From NCBI RefSeq assembly GCF_003334405.1, contig NZ_QOWM01000013.1: a DNA stretch of 64,000 nucleotides. One strand, written 5' to 3'. This document shows, one piece after another, positions 1 through 53,816 of the stretch (position 1 is the first letter of the stretch; each line of letters begins with the position of its first letter). The translations under genes were made by a program, and so were the position numbers. The notes beneath the pieces were generated by a model that saw nothing but the letters and a program-made list of their open reading frames with translations, searched no databases and had not been told where the DNA came from. Source of the stretch: Escherichia coli. Lineage in GTDB: Bacteria > Pseudomonadota > Gammaproteobacteria > Enterobacterales > Enterobacteriaceae.

Positions 1-158
1 AGCAGGGGATTGACCGGATGGCCGGACGTCACTCCGCCGGGGCACACCGAACAGGCCACGCCGGTGGGGGCACCAATGCGCACCCCGGCTGAACCCTGAA
101 CAATGCTACCGCCATACTGCGTCATGTCGCCCTGACGCGCTGCCGGTTTTCCGCTCAT
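1..158 (-). CDS. rhsA: Rhs core protein, N-terminal 52 codons only (gene runs off the window start)
   Basis: Reverse strand from ATG at 158..156 translates MSGKPAARQGDMTQYGGSIVQGSAGVRIGAPTGVACSVCPGG..., the PAAR-like N-terminus typical of E. coli Rhs proteins; divergent from yibF as expected from K-12 gene order (recalled). Confidence 0.6.
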   Translation of the reverse strand, partial: MSGKPAARQGDMTQYGGSIVQGSAGVRIGAPTGVACSVCPGGVTSGHPVNPL

Positions 159-385
159 TTCTCATCCTTGTTTTATCGGGTTATTTGTCTGCTGACAGGC
201 GAAACCCTACAGATTTATAAGAAAGCCTGAAGTGAGATATCCATCAGAGTGAAATAATTAGGAAAATATTTATATCACCATGATAAATATGTGATTTATT
301 TGGAAGTAACAAACCATCAACATTTTCTGCCCTTTTTCCCATCACCAGGCCATACTGATATTTTTCCTCGCACAAAGGACTCGGC

Positions 386-994
386 ATGAAACTCGTCGGT
401 AGCTACACCAGCCCGTTTGTACGCAAACTTTCTATTCTGTTGTTAGAAAAGGGCATAACTTTCGAATTTATTAATGAACTGCCCTATAACGCGGACAACG
501 GCGTGGCGCAATTTAACCCGTTAGGAAAAGTGCCGGTGCTGGTGACCGAAGAGGGCGAATGCTGGTTTGATTCGCCGATCATCGCTGAATATATTGAATT
601 AATGAATGTCGCTCCGGCGATGTTGCCGCGCGATCCGCTGGAGTCGTTGCGGGTGCGCAAAATTGAGGCACTGGCGGATGGCATTATGGATGCCGGGCTG
701 GTATCGGTGCGTGAACAGGCGCGTCCAGCGGCGCAGCAGTCTGAAGATGAATTGTTACGCCAGCGGGAGAAAATCAACCGCAGTCTGGATGTGCTGGAAG
801 GATATCTGGTCGATGGCACACTCAAAACCGATACGGTCAATCTGGCGACTATCGCCATTGCCTGTGCCGTCGGATATCTCAATTTCCGCCGCGTTGCGCC
901 AGGTTGGTGTGTCGACCGCCCACACTTAGTCAAACTGGTCGAAAACCTGTTTAGCCGCGAAAGTTTTGCTCGCACCGAACCGCCAAAGGCTTGA
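386..994 (+). CDS. yibF: Glutathione S-transferase-like protein YibF
   Basis: 202-aa [31 protein letters not shown]... thioredoxin-like GST N-domain; recognised as YibF. Confidence 0.9.
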
Positions 995-7912: not shown

Positions 7913-8236
7913 ATGTTCCTGGACTATTTTGCACTGGGAGTGCTTATTTTTGTATTTCTGGTGATCTTCTATGGGATCATTATTTTACATGATATTCCCT
8001 ACCTGATTGCCAAAAAACGTAATCATCCTCATGCCGACGCCATTCATGTTGCTGGTTGGGTGAGTCTTTTTACGTTACATGTTATCTGGCCGTTTTTGTG
8101 GATTTGGGCCACGCTTTACCGCCCGGAGCGGGGATGGGGAATGCAAAGCCATGATTCATCCGTTATGCAACTGCAACAGCGCATTGCCGGGCTGGAGAAA
8201 CAGCTCGCCGACATCAAATCCTCTTCTGCCGAGTAA
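7913..8236 (+). CDS. yiaW: Small inner-membrane protein YiaW (recalled as DUF3302 family)
   Basis: Start placed at ATG 7913 ([21 protein letters not shown]...), giving 107 aa with gaggga RBS upstream; two predicted TM segments. Confidence 0.8.
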
Positions 8237-8241
8237 TACTT

Positions 8242-9378
8242 ATGGATTTACTGATTATTTTGACCTATGTGGCTTTTGCATGGGCAATGTTTAAGATCTT
8301 CAAAATTCCCGTAAATAAATGGACCATTCCCACAGCGGCCCTGGGTGGAATATTTATTGTCAGCGGTCTAATTCTGTTAATGAACTATAACCATCCGTAT
8401 ACCTTTAAAGCGCAAAAAGCGGTTATTTCTATTCCTGTTGTCCCACAGGTGACTGGTGTGGTGATTGAAGTGACGGATAAGAAAAATACGCTGATTAAAA
8501 AAGGTGAGGTGCTATTTCGACTGGACCCGACGCGTTATCAGGCGCGGGTGGATCGGCTGATGGCGGATATCGTTACCGCAGAACATAAACAGCGGGCGTT
8601 GGGCGCAGAGTTAGATGAGATGGCGGCGAATACTCAGCAGGCAAAGGCCACGCGGGATAAATTCGCTAAAGAGTATCAGCGTTACGCACGTGGCAGCCAG
8701 GCGAAAGTAAACCCGTTTTCAGAACGCGATATCGATGTGGCGCGGCAAAATTATCTGGCGCAGGAAGCCTCCGTGAAGTCATCGGCGGCGGAACAAAAAC
8801 AGATCCAGAGCCAGCTGGATAGCCTGGTGTTGGGTGAACATTCTCAAATCGCCAGCCTGAAAGCACAGCTCGCGGAAGCAAAATATAACCTTGAGCAGAC
8901 GATAGTGCGTGCGCCGAGCGATGGTTATGTGACCCAGGTACTGATTCGTCCGGGTACCTATGCCGCGTCGCTGCCGCTACGTCCGGTGATGGTGTTTATA
9001 CCCGATCAGAAACGACAAATCGTGGCGCAGTTCCGTCAGAACTCCTTGCTGCGACTGGCTCCTGGCGACGATGCGGAAGTGGTGTTTAATGCTCTGCCAG
9101 GTAAGGTATTCAGCGGTAAGCTGGCAGCCATTAGTCCAGCCGTTCCCGGCGGAGCTTATCAGTCGACCGGCACCTTACAGACGTTAAACACAGCGCCGGG
9201 TTCAGATGGCGTTATCGCGACCATTGAACTGGATGAGCACACTGATTTGAGCGCTTTACCAGACGGTATTTACGCCCAGGTGGCGGTTTACTCTGATCAT
9301 TTCAGCCATGTCTCGGTGATGCGCAAAGTGCTATTACGCATGACCAGCTGGGTGCATTACCTTTATCTCGATCATTAA
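8242..9378 (+). CDS. yiaV: HlyD-family membrane-fusion (periplasmic adaptor) protein YiaV
   Basis: 378-aa ORF with N-terminal TM helix and long coiled-coil region; 6 bp downstream of yiaW. Confidence 0.85.
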
Positions 9379-17539: not shown

Positions 17540-18014
17540 TTAAGCTCCTTGCGGTGGCGACGTTAGAGAATTGCTACGCGTGATGAGTTGATATAAATGA
17601 CGCAGTTCAAAGAATGCGATAACGAGGCTGGTGGGCAGACAAGCGGCATACATCAGGCCGATGGGTAAACCGAGGATCGGTGAATAATCGCTCCAGTCCT
17701 GAATTGTTTTTAGCGTTGCGCCCCAGGCCAGTGCGCCACAAATAAATAAGATTAAGGAATGGGTAACCAGAGCGACTCGTCGCTGCCATGCGGGGGAGAG
17801 TTTCTCCACCAGAAAGGTGACCTGAACGTGGGCGTTATCCATAAAAGCTACAATCGCGCCAATAAACGTTAACCAGACAAATAAATAACGTGACAATTCA
17901 TCAACAGATAAAATGCTTGTCTGAAAACCATATCTTAAAATAATGTTTATAAATACAATACAGGAAAGTACGGCGAGATTAATCGCCAGTATTGCTTCGA
18001 GTATTTTTTTTCAT
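17540..18014 (-). pseudogene. yiaM: TRAP transporter small permease (DctQ family), apparently frameshifted at the 5' end
   Basis: ATG at 18014..18012 is followed by an 8-A run (plus-strand T8 at 18004..18011) and terminates after 11 codons. The frame continuous with the rest of the gene begins with TGA at 18013..18011. With one A fewer, the gene reads [30 protein letters not shown]... for the 157 aa I recall. Confidence 0.6.
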
Positions 18015-53649: not shown

Positions 53650-53726
<77 letters not shown>

Positions 53727-53735
53727 AATTCGAAA

Positions 53736-53762
53736 AGCCTGCTCAACGAGCAGGCTTTTTTG
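53736..53762 (+). terminator. Rho-independent terminator of proK
   Basis: agcctgctc / loop aacg / agcaggct followed by TTTTT. Confidence 0.7.
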
Positions 53763-53816
53763 CATCTGCAGCTCATGAGGATGAGAACCTCCGGGGGCAG
53801 GGAGGTTCGACTCGAC

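Follow-up and report, generated by a model that had tools for sequence, protein, structure and literature searches.

The start of rhsA and the edge of the RhsA island at one end of a 64-kb stretch of Escherichia coli DNA

Positions 158..1 on the minus strand of the window (that is, the whole stretch of 64,000 nucleotides analyzed here) are, with a high degree of confidence, best explained as a whole as the beginning of rhsA. This is the principal gene of the RhsA element, an accessory island of 8.2 kb that is inserted between yibH and yibF. Judging by its 99.97% identity to K-12 MG1655 over 64 kb (15 substitutions and two indels, of 1 bp and 168 bp), the window is part of the chromosome of a close K-12 relative. 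Many complete E. coli genomes, that of K-12 MG1655 among them, match positions 1-1000 with 100% identity, and in those genomes the same bases are annotated as rhsA or RHS element core protein and lie beside yibF. The 52 encoded residues match positions 1-52 of the NCBIfam profile RHS_core (NF041261) with E = 8.2e-28, so that the visible N-terminus coincides with the beginning of the profile. The profile match and the identity to annotated rhsA both support the claim of the initial annotation that the 5′ end of a gene for an Rhs core protein lies here. The first 275 bp of the window, which include the rhs 5′ end, are present approximately three times per genome, and it is therefore the neighbor yibF that identifies this copy as rhsA. 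The adjacency to yibF, the divergent transcription and an island boundary common with K-12 are those of the RhsA element (rhsA-yibA-orphan rhs-yibG, between yibH and yibF); positions 1-385 do not differ at all from K-12, down to neighbor, start codon and boundary, and they represent the K-12 locus as found in a sister strain. The start of rhsA at the window edge is an ordinary and already known feature, and rhsA is one of the earliest repeated elements to have been described in this species.

The visible part of rhsA is a partial coding sequence that runs off the window edge. Its start codon, read from the sequence, is the ATG at 158-156 on the minus strand, and the translation of 158..3 is MSGKPAARQGDMTQYGGSIVQGSAGVRIGAPTGVACSVCPGGVTSGHPVNPL. 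An in-frame TGA shuts the frame two codons 5′ of this ATG, and an AAGGA located 6 nt from it, also on the 5′ side, could plausibly serve as the ribosome-binding site. The coordinates first proposed for the gene, i.e., the first 158 bp, transcribed out of the window, are exact to the base. A divergent intergenic region of 227 bp (159-385) separates rhsA from yibF. The rhs coding part has a GC content of 0.70, which drops to 0.28-0.31 at 201-350. The features of this end of the window are listed in Table 1.

Table 1. Features at the rhsA end of the window, with their positions and the evidence for each
Feature	Position	Strand	Evidence
rhsA codons 1-52 plus 2 nt, partial CDS	1..158	-	Translation; RHS_core profile; 100% identity to annotated rhsA
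Residues 48-52 (PVNPL), where the DUF6531 plug at the N-terminal end of the Rhs cage starts	3..17	-	Pfam DUF6531; Tse5 shell alignment
Residues 1-47, predicted counterpart of Tse5-NT	18..158	-	Alignment of residue 48 to 8cp6_B residue 1
Single PAAR-type repeat, residues 2-29, SGKPAARQGDMTQYGGSIVQGSAGVRIG	72..155	-	Alignment to PAAR proteins; NCBIfam, Pfam
Translation start context	159..169	-	AAGGA at 169-165 and in-frame TGA at 164-162, read directly
Conserved rhs leader and presumed promoter region	159..275	-	Near-identical upstream of rhsC
AT-rich DNA specific to the RhsA locus, island edge	276..348		Absent from rhsC and from rhs-less strains; GC 0.28-0.31
Core-genome DNA just upstream of yibF	349..385	+	Sole matching part in rhs-less genomes
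yibF, glutathione S-transferase family, core gene	386..994	+	ORF; annotation in related genomes

The gene content beyond position 1 was read in the five nearest genomes (K-12, LR-33, VG48B2, TB06053 and CP8-3_Sichuan), with about 13-15 substitutions in 13-15 kb separating the closest relatives from K-12. In K-12, LR-33, VG48B2 and TB06053 an intact rhsA of 4134 bp continues upstream with identical organization, and rhsA is followed in order by yibA (HEAT repeat; 20 bp downstream of rhsA), a 957-bp orphan rhs tip, yibG (Sel1 repeat), a 219-bp orphan rhs tip, a frameshifted Imm57 gene (a pseudogene) and yibH. RhsA in the nearest genomes is a protein of 1377 residues composed of a PAAR-like N-terminus, a DUF6531 plug, a YD-repeat cage, an Rhs-associated core and an Ntox34 toxin tip, the last of which was detected in the relatives' proteins with E = 2e-43. 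Full-length RhsA of VG48B2 scores 2645 bits against RHS_core, for which the cut-off is 2000, and Pfam places in it DUF6531 at 46-123, many RHS repeats and an RHS domain; the protein also has seven YD-repeat stretches and Rhs_assc_core at 1170-1247. Vlazny and Hill (1995), whose work is reviewed in PMC3150448, reported that the C-terminus of RhsA is toxic and that YibA neutralizes it; the toxin/immunity nature of RhsA is thus already published, and its recovery here has little discovery value. The upstream Rhs ORF, the Rhs toxin domain and the immunity ORFs that the initial annotation had proposed to look for were sought in these nearest genomes; an intact rhsA was found in four of the five, and the Ntox34 tip and yibA in each of them. 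Its statement that toxin and immunity cassettes lie just outside the window is borne out in the nearest genomes, where they fall within 8 kb past position 1, and needs correction in one respect: the island reaches 348 bp into the window.

The fifth genome, CP8-3_Sichuan (NZ_CP053736.1), retains the first 203 nt of rhsA and lacks the next 2052 bp, and the remainder is classified by NCBI as a pseudogene. Since this genome is as close to the window as the others and yet carries the deletion, an intact rhsA upstream in the window's own genome is likely but not certain. That the 158 bp might be a mere remnant, with rhsA truncated, internally deleted or rearranged in the source genome and no functional Rhs toxin made, is accordingly an alternative to be weighed: CP8-3_Sichuan ranks among the three best matches over 25 kb, and rhs genes were first named for recombination between their copies (PMC3150448), but four equally close genomes all have the intact 4134-bp ORF, and we consider such a remnant unlikely. 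The missing segment in CP8-3_Sichuan is a multiple of three in length and lies between two identical 8-bp stretches, one of which, at NZ_CP053736.1 1038-1045, corresponds to rhsA nt 196-203; the loss could be either genuine or an artifact of repeats collapsed during assembly.

The N-terminus of RhsA had been described as PAAR-like. This holds for approximately 28 residues, which resemble the last of three PAAR repeats, whereas a full domain is absent and family thresholds are not reached. Residues 2-29, which include a literal P-A-A-R at residues 5-8, align with the last repeat of solved PAAR proteins, namely residues 71-98 of 99 in 9rce_c (E = 0.003), residues 67-93 of 93 in 4jiv_D and the last repeat of 8gra_J. 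They also match positions 68-94 of 94 in the NCBIfam profile T6SS_PAAR_dom (NF033420) with E = 0.003 and 17.6 bits against a cut-off of 124, and the Pfam family PAAR_motif (PF05488) gives E = 0.0084 and 0.6 for the N-terminal residues. Canonical PAAR spike-tip proteins (PF05488, NF033420; 4jiv_D) have three repeats in about 90 residues, of which RhsA has only the counterpart of the third, including the K-P-A-A-R-x-G-D motif, and it therefore scores far under the cut-offs for PF05488 and NF033420. The DUF6531 plug of RhsA begins after only about 45 residues, which leaves room for one PAAR repeat and not for a full domain. The label PAAR-like is nonetheless a fair one, in line with the literature on Tse5. 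The literature on the DUF4150 "PAAR-like" domain was set aside, as it concerns a different domain.

The best solved homologue of the RhsA N-terminal region is the shell of Pseudomonas aeruginosa Tse5 (chain 8cp6_B, E = 6e-18). Residue 48 of RhsA (PVNPLLGAK) aligns with residue 1 of this chain (PVNPMLGSK), which begins at P48 of Tse5. Tse5 is cleaved between K47 and P48 to give Tse5-NT, a fragment of 47 residues that has been described as PAAR-like and required for secretion, its residues 30-47 being anchored in the plug (PMC10684867). By analogy, E. coli RhsA may be cleaved between H47 and P48 (H47|P48), so that the residue before the cut would be histidine in RhsA and is lysine in Tse5. When the alignment of P48 with the start of the Tse5 shell is taken together with the K47/P48 cut, the window appears to encode the whole counterpart of Tse5-NT and five residues of the plug. 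The N-terminal fragment of RhsA would thus equal that of Tse5 (PA2684; cryo-EM structure 8cp6) in length, at 47 residues, in a comparison made via the shell chain only. The two proteins differ in their toxin tips, which are Ntox34 in RhsA of relatives and a pore-former in Tse5, and in that Tse5 adjoins its vgrG whereas RhsA has no vgrG nearby.

The solved homologues Tse5 and Photorhabdus Rhs1 suggest how such a protein might work. The YD repeats would form a closed shell around the toxin, a conserved aspartyl-protease motif would free the toxin inside this shell, and residues 1-47, cut at the predicted site, would stay anchored in the N-terminal plug. Again by comparison with homologues, the single PAAR-type repeat would attach RhsA to a VgrG spike, with which type VI secretion would deliver it to neighboring bacteria, and YibA would protect the producer cell. 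However, neither vgrG nor any tss gene is annotated in the part of K-12 that corresponds to the window or in the 12 kb upstream of it, and membership among type VI effectors is therefore not assigned. To our knowledge, the K-12 lineage is without a type VI system, and rhsA in this lineage is probably a stranded effector that is still a working toxin/immunity pair. A quite different view would be that full-length rhsA is kept for a role independent of type VI secretion, for example as an intracellular stationary-phase toxin/antitoxin or through another export route, with the 47-residue piece not serving as a spike adaptor; it draws on the fact that several K-12-like strains lacking type VI secretion keep a near-invariant 4.1-kb rhsA with one third of a PAAR domain, and we think it improbable. 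The reading of rhsA as a stranded effector is preferred here.

The junction represented by positions 1-385 was found in 3731 of 5426 complete E. coli genomes, and in genomes that lack rhs at this site (ST131 and others) the match is limited to 349-385. In the ST131 genome examined, yibH directly adjoins yibF with a spacer of 70 bp. When this empty site was compared with K-12 by blastn, the breakpoints fell just after the yibH stop and at window position 349; the RhsA island in K-12 therefore spans 8249 bp with its edge at 348/349, and its last 348 bp are in the window. For annotation, this means that the left 348 bp of the window belong to a variable island and not to the core genome, and that toxin and immunity cassettes start immediately past position 1, as in the nearest genomes. 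On the far side, just outside the window, the island is bordered by the pair yibI-yibH, a paralogue of which, yiaW-yiaV (DUF3302 and HlyD-family proteins; approximately 69% DNA identity), is located at 7913-9378.

The leader upstream of rhsA is common to another rhs locus. In the pairwise alignment, rhsA and rhsC are near-identical from about position 275 to the ATG and unrelated beyond about 275. Because of this conservation with rhsC, the promoter of rhsA is probably located in 159-275. A promoter and terminator consensus scan of 159-385 gave nothing above shuffled sequence, a permissive Rfam scan of 1-1200 detected no RNA family, the 126-nt conserved leader folds no better than its shuffles (z = 0.28), and a repeat search of 1-1100 returned only chance inverted pairs of 12-13 nt.

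Such sharing of 5′ ends raises the question of whether the fragment could belong to another rhs copy (rhsB, rhsC or other), or else carry a tip other than Ntox34 with yibA as a displaced orphan immunity gene. In favor of this, besides the approximately threefold presence of the first 275 bp, are the 94.6% identity between window positions 1-275 and the rhsC locus of strain SF10 and the fact that the NCBI name of the gene at the yibF site varies between rhsA and rhsB. Moreover, the segment made up of the K-12-type tip plus yibA was matched over at least 80% of its length in 1757 genomes, about half of the 3731 with the junction, and other genomes keep yibA behind a different tip, so that it matches alone; the 158 bp by themselves do not fix the toxin. 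Nevertheless, it is the position beside yibF that makes the locus RhsA, near-identity to K-12 extends throughout the window, and an Ntox34 tip with yibA occurs in every near-identical genome examined; a different copy or tip is thus very improbable. For the RhsA copy itself, Ntox34 together with YibA would be expected in the source genome, owing to its close relationship to K-12. As to a chance open frame in GC-rich DNA, for which only the shortness of the 52 visible codons could speak, it is refuted by the RHS_core match and by the thousands of genomes in which exactly the same sequence is annotated as part of a gene.

Several minor observations were made elsewhere in the window in the comparison with K-12. 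At 18004-18011, right after the yiaM start codon, the window has eight consecutive T (A8 on the yiaM strand) where K-12 has T7; in the T8 allele the yiaM frame shifts at codon 4 from the K-12 start, and the longest remaining ORF is 118 residues from a TTG. This allele is a natural variant common to ATCC 8739 and many other genomes, in which yiaM is still annotated. A 108-bp segment at 53708-53815, just downstream of tRNA-Pro(CGG) (53650-53726), is present in a single copy, whereas K-12 has the same segment twice, 168 bp apart, in a stretch annotated as RtT-like sRNA, which leaves the window one repeat unit (168 bp) short of K-12. An IS150 transposase gene at approximately 40293-41662 adjoins hokA in the same place as in K-12, with the alignment unbroken across it, and the type I toxin gene ldrD is located at approximately 62087-62194, between yhjV and bcsG, according to the K-12 annotation shifted by a 167-bp offset.
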